Shown piece after piece: positions 2,973 to 45,721 of a stretch of DNA of 53,598 bases. This stretch comes from Candidatus Thorarchaeota archaeon. Lineage in GTDB: Archaea; Asgardarchaeota; Thorarchaeia; Thorarchaeales; Thorarchaeaceae. Every line of letters starts with the position of its first letter. The stretch's first letter is position 1. The notes beneath the pieces are model-generated. The model made no database searches and was not told where the DNA came from. It worked only from the letters and a program-made list of their open reading frames with translations. The stretch spans positions 1 to 53,598 of the forward strand of contig JBHLRS010000022.1 of the NCBI GenBank assembly GCA_048882325.1. The letters run 5' to 3'. A program made the position numbers and the translations under genes.

Positions 2973-4139
2973 TCACGATCGTTGGAAGATAGATACAACC
3001 ATGTTGTTACCAAAACCTCCGATGTTCTGTGTCAGTCCCAGAACAGGAGAACTTACCTGCAGTCCTTTTGGAGCTCTCTGCATGAGTTGGCAATAGATAT
3101 CATGGATCTGCGCTATACCGGTCCCACCAGGTGGATGACCGCGAGCCTTAAGTCCGCCAGTGGTGTTGACTGGAAACTGACCATTCACCTCTGTTGCACC
3201 ATCTTTCACCAAACCTATAGATTGACCGGGTTCAGCAATTCCTAGGTCTTCCATATTCACCAATTCTAGGATTGAGAAAGCATCATGAAGTTCGTACACA
3301 TCAATATCACTAGGTTCAACATTAGCCATGGCGAAAGCACGCTCAACAGCTACCCTAGTTGCGCAAAAAGATGTCAATGCGAGGCGATGTTGCAGTGCAT
3401 GATAATCAGTTCCATGACCTACACCTAATACACGAATGGCTTGGTCTGAGATTCCAAGTCCTCTCACTACCTGATCAGAGGCAAGAACTATTGCTGCGGC
3501 ACCATCACTTGTAGGACAGCAATCATACAACGTAAGAGGGTCTGCAACAACCCGGGCGCTACTGATTTTCTCCACGGTGAGCTCCATTTGGAAGTGTGCC
3601 AATGGATTCTTCGCTCCATTCTTGTGGGCCTTCATAGGCACAAGTGACAACTCATCGCGGGTGAGACCATAATCATGCATGTATCTACGTGCAACCAAGG
3701 CTGCTAGTGCTGAAGGAGTAGCTCCATATCGAGACTCACTTTCATAGGATAGTATCTTGGCAAGAATCTTTGAGGATGTTTCTCGGTCAACTTCTGACAT
3801 CTTCTCGACTCCAACAACCAGAATAAGATTAGAGTGTCCAGATGCAATCATCGTAAAAGCGGCCTCGAACGCGCTTGAACCTGAGGAGGGTCCGGATTCC
3901 ACCCGGGTTGCGCCTGCAGGAACAAGCCCTAGTCTATCAGCCAATAGTGTCGACACATGCCCCTTATTGACAAACTCATCAGGATTCAGCGTGCCCACGA
4001 TGATATGATCGAATGGTTGGTCCAATGTCTGAGAGTCACTCATGGCTTCGAAAGATGCCTTCTCCACAAGTTCAGTGAATGAGTCCTTGAGCACTCCGAA
4101 CTGTGTCATTCCAGCACCAATGATGTTCACTGGTTCCAT
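2973..4139 (-). CDS. Thiolase-fold protein (archaeal/SCP2-type), catalytic cysteines apparently absent
   Basis: Motifs GAGMTQFG, VVGVEKMS, YDCCPTSDGAAA, ELHDAF, NTTGGLKARGHP and QNIGG. RVESGPSSG stands where RVEAACASG is normal. Confidence 0.9.
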   Translation of the reverse strand: MEPVNIIGAGMTQFGVLKDSFTELVEKASFEAMSDSQTLDQPFDHIIVGTLNPDEFVNKGHVSTLLADRLGLVPAGATRVESGPSSGSSAFEAAFTMIASGHSNLILVVGVEKMSEVDRETSSKILAKILSYESESRYGATPSALAALVARRYMHDYGLTRDELSLVPMKAHKNGAKNPLAHFQMELTVEKISSARVVADPLTLYDCCPTSDGAAAIVLASDQVVRGLGISDQAIRVLGVGHGTDYHALQHRLALTSFCATRVAVERAFAMANVEPSDIDVYELHDAFSILELVNMEDLGIAEPGQSIGLVKDGATEVNGQFPVNTTGGLKARGHPPGGTGIAQIHDIYCQLMQRAPKGLQVSSPVLGLTQNIGGFGNNMVVSIFQRS

Positions 4140-4151
4140 TAGACTCCTACC

Positions 4152-4676
4152 TCACTCAATCAATACAAGAATGTCATTAGGAGTGACCATCGTTCCCACA
4201 TCAACGTTGACCTCCTTTACAGTCCCTGAGGAGCCGGACTTCAGTTCATTGAACATCTTCATTGCTTCAAGGATACAGACAGTATCGCCAGCTTTGACCG
4301 AATCCCCTACCTTGACTCGAACCTCTGTGATCTTGCCAGGCATAGGTGGATAGATACCTCCTTTGATCTTTGGACCACCCTGCCCTCCTCCAGCAGCACT
4401 CTTGACGACCTCCTGTTTCCTCACGCGCTCCCAATCAATCGTTCGCTCCTCGCCATTAATTTCAAGGGTAATTGCTTTGCCAGACCTCTTCAGTATCTTC
4501 ACTGCATAATCCGAACCGGTGTCGTTGACGATCCAATTTCCAGCCTCTTCAAGTGTAGGCTTCATGGTGAAGCTTTGATCCCCCACTGTGATGACTAGGA
4601 GACCTCCCTCATCAAGCATTTCCACATCAACTTCATAGGCACGCTCATCCAAAGTGACCTTGTATTCTGGGCTCAT
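4152..4676 (-). CDS. Biotin carboxyl carrier protein with an N-terminal beta domain (174 aa)
   Basis: PMPGKI...VKVGDSV...LEAMKMFNE biotinylation motif. The real start is ATG 4676 (MSPEYKV), directly after the upstream stop at 4678; the track's 4826 start overlaps the upstream gene. Confidence 0.93.
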   Translation of the reverse strand: MSPEYKVTLDERAYEVDVEMLDEGGLLVITVGDQSFTMKPTLEEAGNWIVNDTGSDYAVKILKRSGKAITLEINGEERTIDWERVRKQEVVKSAAGGGQGGPKIKGGIYPPMPGKITEVRVKVGDSVKAGDTVCILEAMKMFNELKSGSSGTVKEVNVDVGTMVTPNDILVLIE

Positions 4677-4677
4677 C

Positions 4678-6267
4678 TCACTGCCCCCTGCTTCTCCCAC
4701 GCATGATATCCTTACGACCTGCAGATGACCAAGCTGATGAAGACTTATCCCATTGGCCAGGACTGTATTGCACTGTTCGACCATCAACAAGGTCTGCTCT
4801 CCCAGCATCACTCCAAGTCTGTGCACGACTGGCAGCAGCAGCTACTGCACCAGGCCCGGTCCCATTCATGTGTAAGACTGCAGCGGCTATAGCAACCTCA
4901 AGCTCAGGAGTCATAGTTCCCCTGCTCATCCGCTGTGCCTTTCGTTTCAGAAAATCAAGTGCGTACTGTGGATATAGAGCATATGAAACCAAGTCTCGTG
5001 GAACATGTGGAATGTCCTTCAGTGCCTCTCGAGCTGCTGGCAATTCTGGTTCTAGCATATCAGCAGGTCTACACTCCAAGGGCTTTTCATCACCAATTGC
5101 TTTCTTCTTTATCTCTGGGTCAATCTCTGCTGGAGGTCTCCCGTAGTATCCCCGAATGTACTGCTTGACCTCAGTAGGGATCATACTGTACCTCTCTCCG
5201 GTCACAACATTGAGCGTGGCCTGTGTACCAACTATCTGGCTTGATGGTGTAACCAGCGGGGGATACCCCAGTTCAGCTCGGACTCGTGGGACCTCTGCAA
5301 GGACCTCATCATATCTATCAAGCGCTCCCTGTTCTCTTAGTTGATTGTCTAGGTTTGAGAGCATTCCACCCGGAATCTGGAACTGTAAGACCTGTGGGTT
5401 GACACCCTGTAGACTGCCTTCGAATTGACCATACTTTCGTCGGATCTTTCTGAAGTAGTTCGCAATCTCTGCGAGGAGGTCTAGGTTTAGACCAGTGTCC
5501 CTTTTTGAACCCTTTAATGCTTCAACAATGGACTCAGTTGCAGGTTGAGATGTTGCCATGGATAACGCAGAGATGGCACAATCAACTATGTCAACTCCCG
5601 CCTCTGAGGCTTTCAAGTAGGCCATGGCAGCCATGCCACTGGTGTAATGGGAATGTAGGTCGATTGGAATCTCAACTTCATCCTTGAGTTTTGTGACCAA
5701 GTCAAAAGCAGCCTCGGGTGAGATGAGACCTGCCATGTCCTTGATGCAGATTGAGTCAGCATCAAGAGAGTAGAGTTTCTTTGCCTTCTCAACGAACCTG
5801 TCATTTGTATGGAAGGGACTCAGAGTATAACAGAAACTTGCTTGGACATGACCACCCTCACGTTTCACAAACTTGATTGCAGCCTCCATGTTGCGGATGT
5901 CATTGAGAGCATCGAAGATTCGGAAGACATCAAGTCCTGCTTTGACTGCTTCAACGACGAATGCGTCGAGAACATCATCGGCGTAGTGACGATAGCCCAC
6001 GATGTTCTGGGCTCTGAGGAGCATCTGGAGCTTTGTCTTTGGCATTGCATCCCTTAGAGCCTCTAGCCTTTCCCATGGGTCCTCATCCAGGAACCGCATC
6101 ATGGAATCAAAGGTGGCTCCTCCAAACATCTCAAGTGACCAATATCCGACCTTGTCGAGCTTTTCGCAGATTGGAATCATGTCCTCTGTTCGCATTCTTG
6201 TTGCCAGCAAGGACTGATGAGCATCCCGCAAGACGGTGTCAGTAATCATGAGTTTGGTCATGGTCAA
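4678..6267 (-). CDS. Pyruvate/oxaloacetate carboxyltransferase (PycB / OadA / transcarboxylase 5S family) with an extra C-terminal PccX/MmdD-like tail
   Basis: TDTVLRDAHQSLLATRM, GGATFD, IKDMAG, LHSHYTSG, QIPGGMLSN and PPLVTPSSQIVG. No biotinyl domain is fused. Confidence 0.93.
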   Translation of the reverse strand: MTMTKLMITDTVLRDAHQSLLATRMRTEDMIPICEKLDKVGYWSLEMFGGATFDSMMRFLDEDPWERLEALRDAMPKTKLQMLLRAQNIVGYRHYADDVLDAFVVEAVKAGLDVFRIFDALNDIRNMEAAIKFVKREGGHVQASFCYTLSPFHTNDRFVEKAKKLYSLDADSICIKDMAGLISPEAAFDLVTKLKDEVEIPIDLHSHYTSGMAAMAYLKASEAGVDIVDCAISALSMATSQPATESIVEALKGSKRDTGLNLDLLAEIANYFRKIRRKYGQFEGSLQGVNPQVLQFQIPGGMLSNLDNQLREQGALDRYDEVLAEVPRVRAELGYPPLVTPSSQIVGTQATLNVVTGERYSMIPTEVKQYIRGYYGRPPAEIDPEIKKKAIGDEKPLECRPADMLEPELPAAREALKDIPHVPRDLVSYALYPQYALDFLKRKAQRMSRGTMTPELEVAIAAAVLHMNGTGPGAVAAAASRAQTWSDAGRADLVDGRTVQYSPGQWDKSSSAWSSAGRKDIMRGRSRGQ

Positions 6268-6381: not shown

Positions 6382-7872
6382 ATGAGTATCAAGCTGACCT
6401 ACACAACCATCAACGGGGATGTGAAAGAGGTTGAGTTTGAGAGAGGTGCTAAGGAAATCCCTTTTAGACGACGAGAACTCCTTCACATTGATCTGGCACC
6501 TCTCAGTTCATGCAAGGCACTTGAGGAAATCTATCTGGATGGAAACCAACTACAAAGCATCGATCTGGCACCTCTCAGCTCCTGTAAATCACTTAAGAAA
6601 CTCTTTCTGTCCGAGAACCAGTTACAAAGTGTCGATTTAGCACCTCTCAGCTCATGTACAAAACTCAGGGTCTTCTGGCTTCACGATAACCAATTGCAGA
6701 GTATTGATGTAGCACCTCTCAGTTCTTGCAAGGCACTCGAGGAATTAGATCTAAATGGAAACCAGATACAAAGCATCGATCTGACACCTCTCAGCTCGTG
6801 CACTAGACTGAAGTGGTTCAACTTGAGTGCTAACAAGTTACGAAACATTGACCTAAATCCTCTTAGCGCATGCACGAAACTCTATGTCCTCAGATTGTAT
6901 AACAACCAGCTGCAAAACATTGACCTGACCCCTCTAGGAACATGTACGAGACTTATGAATCTCGACCTGGCTGGTAACCAGTTGCAGAGTATTGACCTGA
7001 TTCCCCTCAGCTCGTGCACCGAAATTGCGGACCTTAACCTGAGGAATAATCAAATACAGAGCATTGACCTGACACCTCTAAGTTCGTCTTGGAGACTTAG
7101 GAACCTAAATATTTACAGTATCAAATTACAGAGAGCTGTTTCATGGTTACGCCTCACTAAAAGAGAACAAGGAAAAGCCGTCTATACTCATCCGTCTGAA
7201 AGATATCCCTGGAGCTATCTTAGAGATGTTTTGGAATTCCATCTGACATCTCCAACGAGAGATTCATACAGAAAGGCTTCGATTCTGAGAATTCAGAATG
7301 ATATTCTAAGAGCTCTAGGTCTTTCAGACTATGGGTTCATTGGTAGAGATATGACCAATACACTACTGTCACTGTCCTCAGACAACAAGAGAGATTTTGT
7401 TCAGTTCACTCTGGCAGAGGTCCTAAAGGATGAGGTTGTAGCGACTATCGATAGAGAGGGTCACTCGATTGGCCTCAATATAGAATCCTTGAGTAGTAGA
7501 CATGATGAGATTGCCAAGAGGGCGAAGGACATCATCAGACTAAGAGCAGATGAGATTGAACAAACAACTATTGCAATACATGATAACACTGCAGATCTAA
7601 GACCACTCTGGCTCACAGCATATGGTTATGAGATTTGCTCCGCACTATGTCTACGACTGGACACAGATTCTACCGGAGTTGAGCAGGTCAAAAGGGCGAT
7701 TGGTGATGTGGGACTTGAGGTGCATCTTGGCGAGTCATCGGTCTACGGAGTGGACGTTAGTGAAGAATTCAAAGAGTGTATTTGGTGGATTGCCAAACAT
7801 ATGGGTCGTGCTTGGTCGCACAGTTCAGAGATTATAGCATATCTCGGAAACAACGAGCCGTGGAAGTGGTAA
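6382..7872 (+). CDS. Leucine-rich repeat protein (nine 24-aa LRRs) with a non-repeat C-terminal domain
   Basis: Repeat consensus LQSIDLxPLSSCxxLxxLxLxxNQ over about 6478-7125; no signal peptide. Confidence 0.95.
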   Translation: MSIKLTYTTINGDVKEVEFERGAKEIPFRRRELLHIDLAPLSSCKALEEIYLDGNQLQSIDLAPLSSCKSLKKLFLSENQLQSVDLAPLSSCTKLRVFWLHDNQLQSIDVAPLSSCKALEELDLNGNQIQSIDLTPLSSCTRLKWFNLSANKLRNIDLNPLSACTKLYVLRLYNNQLQNIDLTPLGTCTRLMNLDLAGNQLQSIDLIPLSSCTEIADLNLRNNQIQSIDLTPLSSSWRLRNLNIYSIKLQRAVSWLRLTKREQGKAVYTHPSERYPWSYLRDVLEFHLTSPTRDSYRKASILRIQNDILRALGLSDYGFIGRDMTNTLLSLSSDNKRDFVQFTLAEVLKDEVVATIDREGHSIGLNIESLSSRHDEIAKRAKDIIRLRADEIEQTTIAIHDNTADLRPLWLTAYGYEICSALCLRLDTDSTGVEQVKRAIGDVGLEVHLGESSVYGVDVSEEFKECIWWIAKHMGRAWSHSSEIIAYLGNNEPWKW

Positions 7873-12234: not shown

Positions 12235-12912
12235 TCAGGTAGCACCCTGTAGTTCTTTCTTCTGCTCTTCTGTGAGTTCCTCGTAGCCTACAAGTTTGTC
12301 AAGAGTAGTTCCTTTGAATATGTGTGCGGTACACTTCAGGTGATGCCATCCATAACTAATATGACCTTCATAGAGAAATGGTTCTCCCAGCCGTAGTTCT
12401 CCTTTCTGGATCTTCTGTGAGCAGGTCCGGCAAGTCGCCCTACTAGACTTTGCAGGTTCGATTTTCCATGCGTCATCGGTTTCAGACTCTTTCTCGGTAA
12501 ATGGCTCAAGGTCATAGAGAAAGTCCTCTACATCACCTCCCACCATTTCAGGAGTCAAACGAATGGTGAAGGAATCATACTCTGTAGGGGAATAATCGAG
12601 GTCGACAGTACCATTTGCGAAGGTCTTCTTTATCTCGGTCTTTGGAGGGTACATCTTGTTGGCCCGCATGAAGTCCAAGATCTGTGTAGCGAGAACGTTG
12701 CTCGCATCCTTCTTGCCCATCTCGGTTATCCCGGATTCGCCTGCAACACCGTATGTTGTTACAATGATCTGACGACCGTCGTCCAATGTTTCTCGAGCCT
12801 TCAGAAACACGACTGCCCCCACTCTGACTGACTTTTTGATTCTTGGCGTTCTGAAGGTGTCTGGATTGATCCAGTATCCCCAATCGGTTGCGTATTCTAA
12901 CCACTCTGTCAT
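12235..12912 (-). CDS. Protein with a C-terminal PARP-type zinc finger
   Basis: WKIEPAKSSRATCRTCSQKIQKGELRLG...WHHLKC matches the zf-PARP CxxC...HxxC pattern. The N-terminal ~145 aa are unrecognised. Confidence 0.85.
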   Translation of the reverse strand: MTEWLEYATDWGYWINPDTFRTPRIKKSVRVGAVVFLKARETLDDGRQIIVTTYGVAGESGITEMGKKDASNVLATQILDFMRANKMYPPKTEIKKTFANGTVDLDYSPTEYDSFTIRLTPEMVGGDVEDFLYDLEPFTEKESETDDAWKIEPAKSSRATCRTCSQKIQKGELRLGEPFLYEGHISYGWHHLKCTAHIFKGTTLDKLVGYEELTEEQKKELQGAT

Positions 12913-31071: not shown

Positions 31072-31488
31072 TCAATCTTCGAGGACCGTTCGAAGCTTCT
31101 TCACAACACCAGCTAATTTTGATTCTACATGTTCAGAATTGTCTCTTCTGAAGAAGAACCTCTTGCGTTGTCTTCCATTGGGTGCGATAGCTCCAATGCG
31201 AAACCACCTGTCTCTGACCATGAATTCTTGGATGGTGATGGATACACCAAATCCTTTGATAGAGGATGTTTTTGGATGCCCATATCCGAGATTCTCACTC
31301 ACACGAATTGCAGTATCTGACATGAGTGAAATCATTGCTGCTAAAATCTGGCTGGAATAATCCTCTATTGATTCACCAGCGACCACAAGACCTCTTTCAT
31401 TGGTCACAACACAACTCAAGAAGTCTTGCTCAGGACCTACCAGATCATCCATTATTTGTTCAAGTTTTGCTGTTTTTCCTTCCCTCAT
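31072..31488 (-). CDS. Roadblock/LC7 (MglB-like) protein
   Basis: SCVVTNERGLVVAG...ILAAMISLMSDTAIRVSENLG. Confidence 0.85.
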   Translation of the reverse strand: MREGKTAKLEQIMDDLVGPEQDFLSCVVTNERGLVVAGESIEDYSSQILAAMISLMSDTAIRVSENLGYGHPKTSSIKGFGVSITIQEFMVRDRWFRIGAIAPNGRQRKRFFFRRDNSEHVESKLAGVVKKLRTVLED

Positions 31489-31501
31489 TTCTTTACCTCC
31501 A

Positions 31502-32392
31502 TTAAGTTACTGATGCTTCGTGAAGTTTCACATCCCAGAGCTTGACTACTTCTTTGATATCATTGCTAAGGTTCTCTATCTCAAAGGACACAAGTCCAAG
31601 CTTTGCAGTATTTGGAAAGATGCATGTCAACATTACATTCTCTGCTACTTGCTTCAATAATACTGAAAAACTGACATTATCAGAATCATTATCTGCATCA
31701 ATCAAGACTTGTCTGAATTGAGAATCAGAAGCAACAAGGCGGATAAAGTCTTGAGAGATCGTTATCATTCCTGCAGACATACTACTGACAACCATCTCCA
31801 AGTTCTCAGGCATTGCATCATAGAAGAGACGATGAGCTAGGATATACCCATCCACTGTGAAGACAGTAAGACCCCAAACTGGAACTCTCATCTCAAAATC
31901 TGTCAGATGGTTTCGAATCTGTTGAATTGGAGGAATTACTGATTCTACTGGAGTTGAGTCATCGAATCCAACAACTACCTGCGACTCGCCAGATTCATCA
32001 AGGGGTGAAGCATTTTCCTCAACTTGATCTGTATTATCATCAATGGGAGTTAGTTGTGCAAGATTTTCTGAATCTAAAGAGATTTCAGTTTGATTTGATT
32101 GCGCCTCATCTATAGACTCTTCATAAGCTGATTCTTGAGAATTGTCAACAGCGGTCGTTAGGCTCTGTTCTGAAACTTGTTCCAGACGTTCCTTCTTGCC
32201 CTGGGGTTTACGCGCCTTCTTGGGTTTTTCTAGAGGTTCAGTGGCTGTATGTATCAGTCCTGAAACCGGACCTGAAGTTTCCTTCTTAACCTGAGTTTTA
32301 CGTACTTTCTTGGGTTTTTCAGAACTTTCGTGAGTAGGTTTTCTCTCAGGCTGTTCACTTTCACTTTGTGTATCGACTTGTTCTCGCTCCAT
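31502..32392 (-). CDS. Roadblock/LC7 protein with a ~150-aa disordered N-terminus
   Basis: C-terminal GLTVFTVDGYILA...VSSMSAGMITIS...AKLGLVSFEI. The N-terminus is low complexity with a duplicated EKPKKxRKxQxKKE. Confidence 0.85.
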   Translation of the reverse strand: MEREQVDTQSESEQPERKPTHESSEKPKKVRKTQVKKETSGPVSGLIHTATEPLEKPKKARKPQGKKERLEQVSEQSLTTAVDNSQESAYEESIDEAQSNQTEISLDSENLAQLTPIDDNTDQVEENASPLDESGESQVVVGFDDSTPVESVIPPIQQIRNHLTDFEMRVPVWGLTVFTVDGYILAHRLFYDAMPENLEMVVSSMSAGMITISQDFIRLVASDSQFRQVLIDADNDSDNVSFSVLLKQVAENVMLTCIFPNTAKLGLVSFEIENLSNDIKEVVKLWDVKLHEASVT

Positions 32393-32411
32393 TTTTTATA
32401 CCTCTCCAAAG

Positions 32412-33086
32412 TTATTGCGCTTGTGGAATTACCTCCACGACTTCATCCTGTGTTGAGGAACTCAAACAGATATCCTCAACCATTCTCAAAAGAAGAACTA
32501 AAGCAGTCTTGGATGACTCGCGATTCATGGCAGACATTCCAACTGCGTTTGAAACGCCCAACCAAACGGCCACTTCTTCTGGTGCAACTGCGTCAGCTCG
32601 GTCTTGTTTGTTCGCAATCGAAACAATAGGCGTACCCGTGAATGCAGATCTTGTTTCAGCAAGTATGGCACAAGCATCACCAATCATTCCTGTGTCTGAA
32701 GAGTCTACGATCATGAGAACGCCATCAGTGTTGGACCTCATTGTGTCTCTCACGAATTTGAAGTGCAGTTGACCTGGTACACCACGAAGCTCAATCTCCT
32801 TGGCAATCCAACCATCGTACTCTGCAACCTCTTTTTCAAACTCAGCTTTGGGAACAATAAGACCCATGTGAGTTTGTTCTTTTCTGACCCAAACTACGCG
32901 CCCAAGATCAAATCCGGTTGTGGTCGTGCTCTTCTCGCCTCGATATTCCTCTTTCATGTCACGTTCAATTGACATTGCATTGGGATCGAGCGTGTGAATA
33001 AGCGTGGTCTTACCGGCCTGAAATGGTCCAGTCACGTAGACTTTGTAGTCGTATGACCTTAGTTTTCTTATCGACAAGTTCTCCAA
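32412..33086 (-). CDS. Small GTPase, MglA/conservon (CvnD)-like
   Basis: G1 GPFQAGKT, switch I TTTTGFDLG, G3 GVPGQ, G4 NKQD, G5 MSA. Confidence 0.92.
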   Translation of the reverse strand: MENLSIRKLRSYDYKVYVTGPFQAGKTTLIHTLDPNAMSIERDMKEEYRGEKSTTTTGFDLGRVVWVRKEQTHMGLIVPKAEFEKEVAEYDGWIAKEIELRGVPGQLHFKFVRDTMRSNTDGVLMIVDSSDTGMIGDACAILAETRSAFTGTPIVSIANKQDRADAVAPEEVAVWLGVSNAVGMSAMNRESSKTALVLLLRMVEDICLSSSTQDEVVEVIPQAQ

Positions 33087-33139
33087 TCTCCTTAGTTCCT
33101 CTAATTCCAGTTCTTGAAGTCGGGATAATGAAATTCAGA

Positions 33140-33502
33140 CTAAAGCGTAGACTCCACAGAGGCTGCAGCTTTGTCCATCTCAAAGTCAATCAAGCCAATC
33201 TTTGCGTCCTTTGGAGCAGTCGCAATCATTGCGGCGTTCGATACTTTACGAACGATGACTGTCTTCTTGTCCCCTTCAATCACGATGCTCTTCGGATCTC
33301 CGGATGCAAGAGCAGCACCAACACGACTTCCAATTGACACAAGTGCGGCTGCCATAGCAGAAACTGCTTTGTCATCTACACCCTTGTGCAACGCAGCGGC
33401 CATTAACTGACCTCTGTCACTAACAAGCGCGCATCCATCGACTTCACTGTCAGCCTCAAGTTGCTTCAAAATTTCTTCAAGTTTCTTTATTTTCGCACTC
33501 AT
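33140..33502 (-). CDS. Roadblock/LC7 (MglB-like) protein, 120 aa
   Basis: GCALVSDRGQLMAAAL...VSAMAAAL...AKIGLI; a GAGGTGA RBS precedes ATG 33502. Confidence 0.93.
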   Translation of the reverse strand: MSAKIKKLEEILKQLEADSEVDGCALVSDRGQLMAAALHKGVDDKAVSAMAAALVSIGSRVGAALASGDPKSIVIEGDKKTVIVRKVSNAAMIATAPKDAKIGLIDFEMDKAAASVESTL

Positions 33503-33639
33503 TCTTTTCACCTCATTTTTCATAGAATTCGCAGCTTTCCTTTTCCTTTGCAGAAACGTAGATCTTTTTCTTTTCACACCAGACCTGGCCCGATGAATTG
33601 GTATCACCTGCATACTTGCAATCTGATCCCATTTTCAAC

Positions 33640-34128
33640 TCACTCCAGTAGTACCGTGAAATCACTAGCGTTACGATCTGGGTAAAATTGACACTTGGTT
33701 ACTGTGCAATTCGTGCCAGTCTTCTCGTTTAGAGCCGCATATAGAATTGCCATCATCGGACAAGGCGGAATCATGTTGAAATCACCAGCTCTGATGACTG
33801 TAGTAGCGGGCGCGAAAATGCACTCCCCAATATCCATGACAAGCTCTGTGTCAGTGAGACTGACAACATTGCACCGTTGTACGGCTCCAGATTTCTTTAT
33901 CTCAGTGACAAATGACTCCACAATAGATTTTACATTATCACCTTCGATATTCAAACCCAAATCGCTCAGCATAGGTTTTGCATCGCCTTGAAACGCATTT
34001 GCCATCTGAGTCCAGATGAGTGGAATATCTAACCCCATGTTTACCATCGCATCTGCGACAGCAACCATGACAGCATTCGCAGTGTCTAGTAGACCTTTGT
34101 ATTCCATTTTTGTTTTCTCCTGGGTCAT
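33640..34128 (-). CDS. V4R / MetOD1-like small ligand- or metal-binding protein
   Basis: LVMDIGECIF...PCPMMAIL...KCQF...SDFTV resembles the Cys-containing V4R/methanogen output domain pattern. Confidence 0.6.
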   Translation of the reverse strand: MTQEKTKMEYKGLLDTANAVMVAVADAMVNMGLDIPLIWTQMANAFQGDAKPMLSDLGLNIEGDNVKSIVESFVTEIKKSGAVQRCNVVSLTDTELVMDIGECIFAPATTVIRAGDFNMIPPCPMMAILYAALNEKTGTNCTVTKCQFYPDRNASDFTVLLE

Positions 34129-39808: not shown

Positions 39809-42800
39809 ATGGACGACATGAATATTCGCATCCTAGTTATCGATGATGATGAAGACCTTCTTTTTATTGCTGAGCAGTATCTTACGGTGCAAGATTCAGA
39901 TTTCCAACTTGTTCAGGTTTCGACTGCACAAAAGGCTCTCCAATTATTGGACGAGGAATCGTTTGATGCAGTGATATGTGATTTCTATCTTGGATCAGAT
40001 CAGTTGAATGGGCTTCAAATCCTTGAATGGTTAAGAGAACATGGCTCTGCAACACCATTTATCATCTTCACTGGTAGGAGCAGAGAGGAGATTGCAATTC
40101 AAGCCCTCAATCTTGGTGCGGACTACTATTTGGAGAAAGGAGATGACTTAGAGGGGCTGTTTACAGAGATAGGGCACCACATAAAAAACGTCGTCAGAAG
40201 TAGACGCACAGAAGATGCGCTTCGTGAAAGCGAAGAGAAATATCGAAATCTTCTTGAAAATCTACCACAGAGGGTTTTCTACAAGGATAGGAATTCTGCA
40301 TACATTGCTGTGAATCCTGCTTTTGCTTCAGATTTCGATTTAAGTATAGCAGATATTATAGGCAAGACGGATTATGATCTTTATCCGGAAGAGGTGGCGG
40401 ATCTTTATACATCAAGCGATCAAAAAATATTGGAGTCTAGAGAGCCACATGAAACTGACCAATATGATTTCGAAGATACTGAGAAGATATTCCACATCAT
40501 TAAGACTCCTGTTCTAGATGATCATGATAATGTTATAGGAATCCTCGGGATTCTCTGGGATATTACAGAACGAAAGGCCGCAGAGAAGGCATTGCGAGAT
40601 AGTGAGGGAAAATACCGTCTGCTGTTTGAGAACCTTTCAGATGGACTTGTTATCACTGATGTCAAGGGAATCATAACCATGTCCAATCCACAGACTGCTT
40701 CAATATTCGGTTATGCTTCAGCAGAACTCATGGGTTCGCACATCACGGCCTACATTCATCCTGATGATAGAGACCAGATCATGAATTTGTTGAGAGAGTC
40801 TCCTGCCGCAAAGCAAGCTGGTCCTGAGGGTGTTGAAGTAAGAGGCGTGAAAAAAGATGGATCAGAGATTATCTGCCATGTGGTGAATTCGGTCTTAATG
40901 AAGAATGAAGGACCAATTGGATATCAAAGCATTATTAGAGATATAACGGATAGCAAACGAGCTGGTGACGCGCTCAAAGAGAGTGAAGCCAAATATAGAA
41001 CGCTTGTAGAGTCAATGCTTGACTTAGTTTTTGTGCTAGACAGGAATAACCGCTACTCTCAGGTTTACTTTGGTGATTCTTCAAACCTTGTCGCACCTTC
41101 TGAAGAACTTCTTGGGCGTTCGGTTCGAGAAATACTACCAAGAGAGGCCGCAGGACGGTTTGAAGAAGCATCACGAGTAGCCAGAGAAACTGGAAAAGGG
41201 GGAGAGTTTGATTACCAACAAGAGATTAATGGATCTAACAAATGGTTCTCAGCCAGGATTAGTCTTCATGAAGATGGCGAGAGTATTGTAGCAACTGTTA
41301 CGAATATAACTGAGAGAAAGAAAATAGAAAATGAATTGAGGATTGCAGAGAAAGAGTGGAGAAATACTTTTGATTCGATTCCCGAATGGGTTTCGGTTTT
41401 GAATAATGAGTTTGAGATAACAAGAGCCAACAAGATAATGGCTGAGTCTTTAGGACTCGAACCGGAAGAACTCATAGGCAAGAAGTGTTACGAGGTCATT
41501 CACAAAACATCCGCGCCATTTCCTGGGTGTCCTCACCTTTCTACATTAGAAACAGGTCAACCAGCATCATCTGAGATATATGATCCAGCGGTAGGAGTGC
41601 CCCTCCTTGTCACAACCTCACCAATATGTGATGATAATGGTGAACAGATAGGGATTGTTCATATTGCCAAAGATATCTCTGCACAAGTCAAAGCTGATGA
41701 AAGAATAAGAAAAAGTGAAACTAAATTCAGAGTTCTTTTTGAGAATGCAGGAATTGGAATGGCGCAAGTTTCGATGGATGGAAAAATACTCGCAGCAAAT
41801 AGAAGGCTTTCGGAAATTCTTGGGTATAATGTTGAAGAGCTTCTGAACATGGAAATTCCTGAAATCACTCACCCAGATGATATTGCAGAGGATGATAGAG
41901 CCCTTGAAGAAATGATAGAATCGGGAGCTTCAAGTTATCAAATAGAAAAAAGATACAAACGAAAAGATGGTGTAGTGGTTCTCGGTCAGTTGACAGTTAC
42001 AATGGTTAGTGATGAGGAAGGAACACCTCAGTTCACAATTGGCATGCTTGAAGACATCACTGAGCATAAGAGAATCCTCAAGGAGCTAGCAGTCAATGCA
42101 GATCTGCTCAGCACTATCTTTGAGATGTCACCTGTAGCGATTGATGTGTATGATGCTAATGGTGCTTTCCTCCGGGCTAACAAGTCCTGTCTAGACCTCT
42201 TCGGAATACGGGATGAAGCGGACCTTGAAAGGCACAATATATTCAATGACCCAAACATCACAGATGACCAAAAGCAAAGAATGCGAGAAGGAGAAATATT
42301 GAGGTTCGATGGTGTATTTGATTTTGATATCATAAAATGTAACAAGATATTTGACACATCAAAACAGGGCAAAGCCTGGTATGAAACTGTAATTTCTCCA
42401 CTTGGGATTGATATTGATGGAGTTCCATCTGGCTTTATTTTACACACACTAGACATCTCAGAACGAGTAATAGCTCTAAAAAGCCTACAAGAGAGTGAGG
42501 GAAAATTCCGTAGAGTCTTTGAGAGAGCTGGTATTGGCATGACATTAGTTGGATCAGATGACAGGATAATCGAGGCCAATTCAGCATATCAAAAGTTGGT
42601 TGGATACAGTCTTGATGAACTAAGAGATTTGAGAATTGCAGATTTTACGCACCCCGACGATGCATTTCTAGATGCAGTGTTATTCAAAGAAATTGTTGAA
42701 AAGAAGAGAGACACATATCAAATGAACAAACGCTACATTACCAAGACCGGGAGAATCACTTGGGTTAATCTGACGGTGACTGTTATCCGAGATGAGACTG

Positions 42801-45721
42801 AGAAGATTACACACATTATTGGCATGATTGAAGATATATCCGCTCAAAAGACTGCGGAAACAAGATTTCGGCATCTCTTTGAAACATCACCAATAGGAAT
42901 CGCGATTGTCGGATTGTCTGGTGAGATTTACAATGCGAACAAAGCCCTAGAGAATATACTCGGTTATTCAAACAATGAATTGGCAGAGTGTAATGTCGAA
43001 GATTTCACACATCCTGAGGACTGGGTAATCGAGAAGAATCTAGAACAGGAATTGATTGATGGGAAGAGTGATTCCTATGCCCTGGAAAAACGCTTCCATC
43101 ATAAGGATGGTCATATTGTCTGGGGGCGGTTGAGAGTTGCAGTCAAAAGAGATGATAACGGAGATCCAGAATTCGTTATTGGACTGGTCAGTGACATAAC
43201 TGAGGAAAAACTCTCCCAGCAGAAAATAGCACAATCAGAGGAAAGATTCAGAACTATGGCTGAGAACATTGCAGATGGCATACTGATATTTGAAGATGGA
43301 TCACTTGTATTTGCGAACGATAAAGCATCCGAGATCTATGGCTATACTTTGGATGAACTATCAGAAATGACTGCTTACGACTTGGTTGCAGAAGAAGAGA
43401 GAGATAAGATTATTGAAATGAGGCGGAAGTGGGACGAGGAAGGGCTTGCTACACCTAGTCTAAACTTATGGATCGAGAGAAAAGATGGCTCAAAGAGATA
43501 TGTGAGTAACCGATACGCACACACCTCGAGAGAAGATGGTAGGAGAATCGGTATCATCACTTCAACAGATATGACACAAGCAAAGTTAGCAGAAATTGCA
43601 CTCAAAATGAGCGAAACCAAATTCAGACAGGTGGTTGATTCCACTCCTCTTGGAGTACATATGTATGAGTTGAATAATGAAGGAGATCTTCTCTTCATTG
43701 GAGCAAATCCCGCAGCCGATAGAATCTTGGGTGTGGATCATTCTAAGTTTACAGGTTTGAAAATTGAGGAAGCGTTTCCAGCATCAGTAGAAACAGAAAT
43801 ACCTGCCAGATATCGAGAGATTGCGGAGAGTGGTTCAACATGGGATATCGAGAGAATTATTTATGAGGATGACGAGATCTCTGGAGCGTTTCAGGTTCAC
43901 GCGTTTCAAAGCGCACCTAACAAAATGGTTGCAATGTTTCTAGATATTACGGATAGGAAGATTGCTGAACATACTCTAACAATGAGCGAGGAGAATCTGA
44001 GAACGTTATTTGAAACAATTGAAGATAAGTTATTCATTATAGGCTTAGATGAGAAGATAATAACAGCAAACCAATCTGTAAGAGATGACCTCGGTTACAC
44101 CAAGGAAGAACTCATTGGACTTCCAGCAGTGCAACTTCATCCTCCTAATCGGAGAGTTGAAGCCGCAGCTATACTAAAAGAGATGATAGAAGGTAAGACG
44201 ACACATTGTCCAGTACCGCTAATGGCAAAAGATGGAACGATTCTTCATGTAGAAACTAAAATCACATTGGGAAAATGGCAGGGAGAGGATGTGCTTTTTG
44301 GGGTTTCTCGAGATATTTCTCAAAGATTGGCGGCAGAGAGAGCTCTCAAACACCAAATAGGTTTCTTGAATGAAGTTATTGAATCGTTGGATCATCCCTT
44401 CTACGTTATTGATGCAAATGATTATAGTGTAAAAATGGCAAACAAGGCAGCTCGTCTAGGGAATGGTCGAATTGGAGAATCTTGTTATGTATTGACCCAC
44501 CATAATTCAGAACCATGTTCAGATGTTAATCATCCTTGTCCGCTTGAAGAGGTACAGAGAACAAAGAGTGCTGTTATCACAGAGCATATCCACTATGATG
44601 AAGAAGGAAAACCGCACGATGTAGAGGTACATGGTCACCCCGTGATTGATGAAAAAGGCAAAGTCATCCAAATGATTGAATATTCACTTGATGTCACTAA
44701 ACAAAAGAGTGCTATCAGAGCTCTTGAGGCTAGTGAGCATAGATTCCGAGATTTGTTTGAGAAAGCTCCTCTTGGTTATCAAACATTGGGTGAGGATAGC
44801 ATGATTCTTGATGTTAACCAAGCTTGGCTCGATACAACCGGTTACGATAAGGATGATATTGTAGGTTTCCACTTTGGCCGTTTTTTGACACGCGAATCTC
44901 AGAGCAGATTCACAAATGCATTTTCCAATTCCAAAGAGAGTGGTGTCATGAGAAATGAAGAATTCGAAATGATCGCCAAAGATGGAAGAATATTGATGGT
45001 TAGATTCAATGGGAGAGTTTCTTATGATGATGAGGGTCAATTCAAACAAATCCACTGTATATTTCAAGACATCACGGATTGGAAAAGAGCAGATGATCTT
45101 CTAAAACGACAGAAGGAAGAATTGAGTGAACTTGCACATGTAATGTCTCACGATTTAGGTAATAAGATGAAGAACATACGCAACCTTGTTAAAATTGCCA
45201 AGAATAAGCCTAATGAAGATATACTGTTGAGAGTTGATAGCATTGCACAACAATCAGCGGAACTCCTCCAAGCTTCTGCAGACCTTGCTGATGCTGGTAT
45301 GATTGTTGAGAAACGGGTAAGTGTTGACTTGAATGAAGTAGTTAGAGAGATTGCTAAAACAACTATACCAGATACAATATCATTCCACTGTGATGATCTG
45401 CCAATTGTTCAAGGTAGTCCGGAGAAAATTGGTCAAATCTTCCAAAATTTGTTCACCAACGCAGTTGAACATGGAAAACCCTCTGTAATTGAAGTTAGGA
45501 GAGCTGAGCTTGCATCAGGTACTAATCTGGTTGTTACAAATGATGGAGTATCAATTCCAGATGATATAAGATCTAAGATTTTCAAAAGAGGGTTTACTAC
45601 AAAGGAGAGAGGCACTGGTCTGGGACTATCTATAGTAAAGAAGCTTGTTGAGGCTCATGGTTGGCGAGTTTCCTTAGATCCAGGATCTCCAACAGCTTTC
45701 AGTATAACTCTGCTCAACTAG
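39809..45721 (+). CDS. Giant hybrid sensor kinase REC-(PAS)x13-HisK-HATPase (1970 aa)
   Basis: IDDD/CDFY/FTGR receiver, 13 PAS units each ending in a DIT/DIS-like motif, MSHDLGN, NAVEHG, NDG, GFTT and GTGLGL. No TM. Confidence 0.95.
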   Translation: MDDMNIRILVIDDDEDLLFIAEQYLTVQDSDFQLVQVSTAQKALQLLDEESFDAVICDFYLGSDQLNGLQILEWLREHGSATPFIIFTGRSREEIAIQALNLGADYYLEKGDDLEGLFTEIGHHIKNVVRSRRTEDALRESEEKYRNLLENLPQRVFYKDRNSAYIAVNPAFASDFDLSIADIIGKTDYDLYPEEVADLYTSSDQKILESREPHETDQYDFEDTEKIFHIIKTPVLDDHDNVIGILGILWDITERKAAEKALRDSEGKYRLLFENLSDGLVITDVKGIITMSNPQTASIFGYASAELMGSHITAYIHPDDRDQIMNLLRESPAAKQAGPEGVEVRGVKKDGSEIICHVVNSVLMKNEGPIGYQSIIRDITDSKRAGDALKESEAKYRTLVESMLDLVFVLDRNNRYSQVYFGDSSNLVAPSEELLGRSVREILPREAAGRFEEASRVARETGKGGEFDYQQEINGSNKWFSARISLHEDGESIVATVTNITERKKIENELRIAEKEWRNTFDSIPEWVSVLNNEFEITRANKIMAESLGLEPEELIGKKCYEVIHKTSAPFPGCPHLSTLETGQPASSEIYDPAVGVPLLVTTSPICDDNGEQIGIVHIAKDISAQVKADERIRKSETKFRVLFENAGIGMAQVSMDGKILAANRRLSEILGYNVEELLNMEIPEITHPDDIAEDDRALEEMIESGASSYQIEKRYKRKDGVVVLGQLTVTMVSDEEGTPQFTIGMLEDITEHKRILKELAVNADLLSTIFEMSPVAIDVYDANGAFLRANKSCLDLFGIRDEADLERHNIFNDPNITDDQKQRMREGEILRFDGVFDFDIIKCNKIFDTSKQGKAWYETVISPLGIDIDGVPSGFILHTLDISERVIALKSLQESEGKFRRVFERAGIGMTLVGSDDRIIEANSAYQKLVGYSLDELRDLRIADFTHPDDAFLDAVLFKEIVEKKRDTYQMNKRYITKTGRITWVNLTVTVIRDETEKITHIIGMIEDISAQKTAETRFRHLFETSPIGIAIVGLSGEIYNANKALENILGYSNNELAECNVEDFTHPEDWVIEKNLEQELIDGKSDSYALEKRFHHKDGHIVWGRLRVAVKRDDNGDPEFVIGLVSDITEEKLSQQKIAQSEERFRTMAENIADGILIFEDGSLVFANDKASEIYGYTLDELSEMTAYDLVAEEERDKIIEMRRKWDEEGLATPSLNLWIERKDGSKRYVSNRYAHTSREDGRRIGIITSTDMTQAKLAEIALKMSETKFRQVVDSTPLGVHMYELNNEGDLLFIGANPAADRILGVDHSKFTGLKIEEAFPASVETEIPARYREIAESGSTWDIERIIYEDDEISGAFQVHAFQSAPNKMVAMFLDITDRKIAEHTLTMSEENLRTLFETIEDKLFIIGLDEKIITANQSVRDDLGYTKEELIGLPAVQLHPPNRRVEAAAILKEMIEGKTTHCPVPLMAKDGTILHVETKITLGKWQGEDVLFGVSRDISQRLAAERALKHQIGFLNEVIESLDHPFYVIDANDYSVKMANKAARLGNGRIGESCYVLTHHNSEPCSDVNHPCPLEEVQRTKSAVITEHIHYDEEGKPHDVEVHGHPVIDEKGKVIQMIEYSLDVTKQKSAIRALEASEHRFRDLFEKAPLGYQTLGEDSMILDVNQAWLDTTGYDKDDIVGFHFGRFLTRESQSRFTNAFSNSKESGVMRNEEFEMIAKDGRILMVRFNGRVSYDDEGQFKQIHCIFQDITDWKRADDLLKRQKEELSELAHVMSHDLGNKMKNIRNLVKIAKNKPNEDILLRVDSIAQQSAELLQASADLADAGMIVEKRVSVDLNEVVREIAKTTIPDTISFHCDDLPIVQGSPEKIGQIFQNLFTNAVEHGKPSVIEVRRAELASGTNLVVTNDGVSIPDDIRSKIFKRGFTTKERGTGLGLSIVKKLVEAHGWRVSLDPGSPTAFSITLLN

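Follow-up and report, generated by a model that had tools for sequence, protein, structure and literature searches.

The transcarboxylase of Propionibacterium (12S, 5S and 1.3S; PDB 1ON3, 1RQB) has three catalytic parts in common with the system analyzed here and likewise contains no biotin carboxylase; its operon consists of four genes, one of which is a small ORF formerly read as the 12S C-terminus (PMC2909200, PMC7344785). In the BT domain of the PCC/MCC alpha subunits (PDB 3N6R, 7YBU), a long helix lies within an eight-strand barrel and a Trp hook sits on the beta6 core; the hook, a loop after the helix, has a conserved Trp that, in MCC/GCC, lies buried within the beta subunit (PMC4673880). 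The alanine-rich helix and the barrel are on different chains in the two-subunit pyruvate carboxylase, where the helix is required for assembly (PMC5059739). A helix-linker-Trp module is further found in the small subunits PccX (PF26062), AccE/AccE5 (PF13822) and MmdD/OadG (PF04277, NF047902), and the mycobacterial epsilon subunit AccE5 places one helix in a beta-cage and its C-terminal part in the carboxyltransferase ring (PMC13612425; 10.64898/2026.02.06.704326).

In Asgard archaea, a methylmalonyl-CoA transcarboxylase-associated ligase and carrier were annotated by Imachi 2020 under propionate fermentation, with scoring by MmdA, carrier and pyruvate carboxylase (PMC7015854). This partly anticipates a transcarboxylase function in Asgard; that work offers an annotation, and its passages found here make no mention of a tail, an architecture or an exclusion test. 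No account of a fused tail or of a split BT layout was found in the literature searched, outside which most subscription papers lay. Here we analyzed a window of 53,598 nt (the whole stretch of DNA under study) from a genome of the class Thorarchaeia (3.6 Mb, 93% complete), whose gene content makes it likely that the source archaeon has an ATP-free methylmalonyl-CoA:pyruvate transcarboxylase (EC 2.1.3.1).

Carboxyltransferase genes, their order and their possible partners

The genes of the window that concern biotin-dependent carboxyl transfer are as follows:

2973..4139 (−): thiolase-family gene, directly behind the carrier, a position it keeps in most loci of Thorarchaeia
4152..4676 (−): free biotin carrier, 174 aa, Pfam PF00364 and weak ACCA_BT
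4678..6261 (−): 5S/PycB/OadA-type oxo-acid carboxyltransferase, 527 aa, Pfam PF00682 and PF02436
25111..26658 (−): 12S/PccB/MmdA-type acyl-CoA carboxyltransferase of 515 aa, present once in the genome
52449..53231 (−): birA, biotin protein ligase, first gene of the birA-12S-5S-carrier order

The ORF of the 5S-type protein spans 4678-6267 on the minus strand and probably starts with the ATG at 6261, giving 527 aa, which equals the length of its database record. Its closest relatives, up to 94% identical, come from Ca. Thorarchaeota MAGs. The protein comprises HMGL-like and PYC_OADA domains, with the Pfam core finishing at about aa 444, and no biotinyl domain was detected in it by the domain search. 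The original prediction had described an oxo-acid carboxyltransferase with a C-terminal tail, and the tail sequence quoted there was recovered at 4678-4914. Residues R12, D13, Q16, K174, H203, H205 and T338 were invariant among 24 homologues, and we take them to be the metal, substrate and carbamylated-lysine positions of 5S. The best PDB matches were 5KS8, 2NX9 and 1RQB. With the Propionibacterium 5S the protein shares 48% identity and a matching fold; its score against the curated 5S model NF008984 was 568.6 bits with a cut-off of 827, and the 12S likewise fell below the curated MmdA cut-off. Judged by sequence, the thorarchaeal enzyme would work like the Propionibacterium enzyme without being its equivalog.

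The carrier starts with the ATG at 4676, one base past the 5S stop. The free carrier predicted directly after 5S does adjoin it and has a biotinyl domain, but its start is this ATG and not the GTG of the ORF 4152-4826, which would encode 224 aa and was rejected. The 12S and birA genes, also predicted, were both confirmed in the window. The 12S is closest to PccB and has Asp408, presumably the position favouring propionyl-CoA in Streptomyces PccB.

The 12S lies about 19 kb from 5S in the source genome, a distance that counts against a joint enzyme, and the window keeps the order birA-12S-5S-carrier with unrelated genes between. This order was found in four Asgard families (Thorarchaeia and three more). 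Where 5S and 12S share a contig, 36 of 37 cases have the 12S upstream and on the same strand, at a distance of between 20 bases, as in five genomes of one genus, and 25 kb; a Fisher test on these cases overstates the association, since kin are not independent. The genes 12S, 5S and carrier are adjacent in Thermoplasmata, and Anaerolineae add mutase genes behind them. Outside Thorarchaeia, among loci with at least 2.5 kb of upstream sequence, which represent about three tailed lineages, a 12S was located within 6 kb of a tailed 5S in 24/24 cases and of a tail-less 5S in 0/14.

The source genome encodes a single copy each of 5S, 12S, the biotin carrier and BirA; a second lipoyl/biotin match was rejected as a carrier because it is an E2. 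The absence of a biotin carboxylase and of a Na+-pump beta subunit, predicted for the window, holds genome-wide: no biotin carboxylase, OadB or OadG was found in the source genome, and the search for such a partner encoded elsewhere, which had been proposed as a check, also returned no match by tblastn with three carboxylases and two OadB sequences. ATP-grasp gave two weak matches there, one of them succinyl-CoA synthetase. Among 87 genomes of the class, 5S was present in 73 and 12S in 75, and biotin carboxylase in none by either of two Pfam domains, a search that detected 13 of 14 controls. Full OadB was likewise found in none of the 87; the class yielded one sub-threshold match and a single match above the cut-off, an OadB-like fragment of 48 aa at a contig end (L033, G047:C204 4213-4356), which may be a genuine gene, a relic or contamination. 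The system therefore differs both from the two-subunit pyruvate carboxylase (PycAB), which needs the PycA biotin carboxylase (Thorarchaeia 0/87), and from the Na+-translocating decarboxylases (OAD, MMCD), which have a membrane beta subunit and an anchored gamma or delta subunit, neither found in the source genome.

Across 400 Asgard genomes, 5S was found in 69/85, 3/3 and 17/19 genomes of the families f1, f4 and f14, respectively, plus one genome (G397), which makes four families only, and in 0/135 genomes of the largest family; f14 groups with Hermodarchaeota in the 5S tree. Biotin carboxylase was present in 103 of the 400 genomes, but in 0 of the 107 belonging to f1, f4 and f14, and OadB in 0/22 of f4 and f14. 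Zero over this many genomes, even though kin are not independent, is not explicable by MAG incompleteness. As G397 has 5S, biotin carboxylase and OadB together, and as OadB or biotin carboxylase is encoded elsewhere in the genome of many Anaerolineae that possess the same operon, exclusivity is a pattern of the Asgard families f1, f4 and f14 only. For these genomes, the ATP use or sodium pumping implied by the database labels of 5S-type proteins, ‘pyruvate carboxylase subunit B’ or ‘oxaloacetate decarboxylase alpha’, is impossible.

The C-terminal tail of 5S and the barrel of the carrier

Behind its core, the 5S-type protein carries a tail of about 80 aa that begins with a helix rich in alanine and also contains a disordered linker and a pair of W-x3-G-R motifs:

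4861..4908 (−): tail part 1, conserved alanine-rich helix (aa 452-467 in the AlphaFold2 model)
4789..4815 (−): tail part 2a, first W-x3-G-R repeat (Trp483), variable, a Thorarchaeia-specific duplication
4693..4731 (−): tail part 2b, conserved C-terminal W-x3-G-R motif (Trp511) and helix

Beyond the helix 452-467, the AlphaFold2 model is of low confidence and shows short helical stretches at 485-492 and 514-522, a predicted pattern that is that of a segment folding upon binding. Among 40 distinct Thorarchaeia tails, the C-terminal W-x3-G-R motif was kept in all 40 and the first repeat was kept in full in 21; a tail with one repeat was also seen in Thermoplasmata, in Anaerolineae and in three further Asgard families, and W, G and R of the C-terminal motif are invariant across lineages. 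Because the C-terminal motif is present in 40/40 tails and the single-repeat form recurs in other lineages, the conservation of the tail is not due to chance. The 5S tree contains six supported tailed clades with an open backbone and four changes, with which a single and a repeated origin of the fusion are both compatible. In two loci (L099:5950-8631, L106:5977-8883), a 5S-like protein stops after the alanine-rich helix and is followed by a carrier with repeated biotinyl domains, with no 12S nearby.

The original prediction had related the tail to PccX, AccE and MmdD. A direct comparison of the tail with Pfam and NCBIfam models (ACC_epsilon, OAD_gamma and MmdD included, PF26062 not among them) gave no match, nor did one with PDB sequences, and homology to the PCC/MCC hook was not detected by sequence; an ESM Atlas search with the tail returned just a low-score PYC_OADA cluster. 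A profile built from 17 tails and searched against 1.84 billion representative proteins matched 51 proteins at E ≤ 0.001. These comprised 21 proteins with an N-terminal hydrophobic stretch, seven C-terminal fragments of 5S and about 20 free soluble proteins of 44-108 aa. OAD_gamma scored above the cut-off in 6/6 anchored matches tested, one free match is ACC_epsilon, and two matches bear PccX in precomputed annotation. Since the profile retrieves OAD_gamma, ACC_epsilon and PccX proteins, the predicted kinship is supported in a transitive way, and the 5S tail would be akin to PccX, AccE and MmdD/OadG. Compared with these small subunits, with which it has the helix-linker-Trp module in common, the tail is fused to the enzyme, has no membrane anchor and, in Thorarchaeia, has a doubled Trp motif.

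The genomic setting of tail-like sequences was also inspected. Among the free small proteins, two have a 12S gene immediately in front of them, and for one of these two a 5S::carrier fusion comes next. Another sits before a carrier and a tail-less 5S. [quoted passage not shown] A locus-level tail HMM gave 8 non-5S matches at E < 1 versus 4 in reversed sequences, so these count as evidence by identity alone, 7 of the 8 being delta subunits or carboxylase tails. The tails were aligned by hhalign to delta subunits at 98%, a value that is circular since the delta sequences came from the same profile, and weakly to carboxylase tails (81% over 19 columns). A 106-aa gene between 12S and 5S in Anaerolineae was considered as an epsilon subunit and rejected, as it appeared cupin-like by eye; such a cupin-like gene of 105-108 aa lies just before 5S and after 12S in 19 Anaerolineae loci (L084-L129).

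The predicted structure of the carrier shows, at aa 5-84, a domain of eight strands without a helix, which had been absent from the original prediction; a disordered linker then leads to the biotinyl domain, which carries Lys140. Its best Foldseek matches were PCC/MCC alpha subunits over about 175 columns, with a high rmsd that stems from the free angle between the domains. In the separate models of each protein, then, the carrier barrel has no helix, and the 5S tail has an alanine-rich helix followed by Trp motifs. By analogy with the PCC/MCC alpha subunits, we infer that the tail may be the helix-plus-hook half of a split BT domain and complete the barrel of the carrier. Unlike in PCC/MCC alpha, helix/hook and barrel would here lie on two chains, and the enzyme in front of the helix is an oxo-acid carboxyltransferase, where PCC/MCC alpha has the ATP-dependent biotin carboxylase. 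The tail would probably be two-part, with the helix for the carrier beta-barrel and the Trp motifs alone for 12S, the docking to which is suggested by co-occurrence and homology. A complex prediction with one 12S chain and tail residues 28-82 of alignment A2 scored 0.02, which counts neither for nor against docking, as a single subunit may not form the site.

A putative ATP-independent transcarboxylase and alternative readings

With two carboxyltransferases and only one carrier, carboxybiotin made by one of them is usable only by the other, and, given 5S, 12S, a carrier and no other partner, transcarboxylation is the simplest reading. Of the parts expected for EC 2.1.3.1, the source genome has a 5S with intact residues, a linked 12S, a free carrier and a ligase. 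We thus consider that 5S, the barrel-bearing carrier and the lone 12S quite probably form a soluble ATP-independent transcarboxylase with the tail as a helix-plus-hook tether. In this enzyme, the alanine-rich helix would plug into the eight-strand carrier barrel and the W-x3-G-R motif or motifs would grip the 12S hexamer, by which 5S and the swinging biotin arm would be held on the 12S core. The 12S would move the carboxyl of methylmalonyl-CoA onto biotin, and 5S would pass it from biotin to pyruvate with neither ATP nor free CO2, so that the overall reaction would be methylmalonyl-CoA + pyruvate → propionyl-CoA + oxaloacetate, in a reversible manner. Of the original interpretation, the kinship of the tail, the lack of a rival partner and the linkage to 12S have stood, and its single docking tail is here refined to a two-part one.

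The same enzyme could instead use its tail to bind the carrier only, the Trp motifs being otherwise used and the 12S being reached by the biotin arm or the barrel. The position of the carrier, always directly after 5S when the 12S is up to 25 kb off, is in line with this, and a helix-in-barrel contact has the nearest precedent (PMC5059739). We nevertheless find it improbable: the helix-only tails (L099, L106) have no 12S nearby and full tails always have one, the Trp motif is the best conserved part of the tail, and the conserved hook Trp of MCC/GCC is buried in the beta subunit (PMC4673880). An identical architecture acting on other substrates, for example acetyl-CoA/malonyl-CoA or butyryl-CoA at 12S, or 2-oxoglutarate or 2-oxobutyrate at 5S, with the thiolase supplying the acyl-CoA, is less credible still. 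It would account for the thiolase after the carrier in most Thorarchaeia and is compatible with a 12S nearest to PccB, a family with a broad acyl-CoA range; against it, Anaerolineae operons run on into methylmalonyl-CoA mutase genes (identified by sequence and an epimerase-adjacent match), the source genome has mutase and epimerase, and Asp408 of 12S, taken as the equivalent position, suits propionyl-CoA.

There is a similarly slight chance that 5S and the carrier are a soluble decarboxylase, or that they work with a membrane decarboxylase or biotin carboxylase which escaped recognition or assembly. Most of the genomes are incomplete MAGs, an OadB fragment stands at a contig end in G047, and 5S, biotin carboxylase and OadB co-occur in G397. 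These points are outweighed by biotin carboxylase being found in 0/87 and 0/107 genomes, single-contig genomes included, and by the source genome, in which tblastn with carboxylases and OadB was blank and the ATP-grasp matches were just two and weak.

Compared with Propionibacterium, 5S has a fused helix-plus-Trp tail and the carrier an eight-strand PCC-like barrel, where the Propionibacterium 1.3S presumably has a short N-terminal arm. This bears out only in part the prediction of an enzyme assembled differently from the Propionibacterium one, given that the operon of the latter has four genes and that the fourth may be the tail module in unfused form; the difference would then be the fusion, the motif doubling and the carrier type, and not the module. 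More tentatively, and with somewhat less confidence than its contrary, we suggest an undescribed transcarboxylase architecture in several Asgard classes, Thermoplasmata and Anaerolineae, in which the PCC frame is retained and the biotin carboxylase is swapped for 5S before a portable helix-plus-Trp tether; this tether might be the common origin of the PccX, AccE and MmdD/OadG tails and of the helix-hook of the PCC/MCC BT domain, and by the swap Asgard lineages might have changed over between carboxylating propionyl-CoA with ATP and without it.

The Wood-Werkman partners are present in the source genome as in Propionibacterium: methylmalonyl-CoA mutase and epimerase lie side by side, and succinyl-CoA synthetase, SdhA/FrdA, fumarase, an Ldh_2-type dehydrogenase, malic enzyme and PEP carboxykinase were also identified; a canonical malate dehydrogenase was not found in the genome, which is a point against the transcarboxylase reading. 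Going by these annotations, the enzyme set would fit a loop of the Wood-Werkman kind, whichever way it runs. On balance the flow probably leads to propionate, as an electron sink in peptide fermentation, but it may instead serve the oxidation of propionyl-CoA. A transcarboxylase would let Thorarchaeia and two more Asgard families connect propionyl-CoA with the C3/C4 pool at a saving of ATP, in keeping with an archaeal cycle of the Wood-Werkman type. Its three small soluble proteins are tractable for cryo-EM of the whole transcarboxylase, and the system suits a direct test of the binding partner of the PccX/MmdD-type Trp motif.

Additional features of the window and of related loci

Several Thorarchaeia have extra 12S 3′-end or 5S 5′-end fragments within the 12S-5S gap, at the following places:

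G052:C10 84215-110013
G043:C209 26176-30057
G028:C100 6785-9350
G051:C63 7114-7649
G077:C61 38419-38688

These fragments suggest a hot spot of integration at which part of the target is duplicated; no such 12S/5S fragments were found within the 53,598-nt window. An Anaerolineae operon (L115, L116, L147, L148) has the order 12S - tailed biotin carboxylase - carrier - tailed 5S - carrier - mutase, and its carboxylase and transcarboxylase appear to share one 12S core. Single-chain fusions of biotin carboxylase and acyl-CoA carboxyltransferase of about 1,000 aa were noticed in Chloroflexota (L138, L139).

Elsewhere in the window, a leucine-rich repeat protein with 24-aa repeats (6382-7872) is oriented divergently to the 5S gene, and a 225-aa protein (12235-12912) contains a zinc finger of the PARP type (PF00645, E 2e-15), which is mainly known from eukaryotes. 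A roadblock and small GTPase cluster, recognized by eye and typical of Asgard archaea, lies at 31072-34128, and a 1970-aa receiver/multi-PAS/histidine kinase is encoded at 39809-45721.
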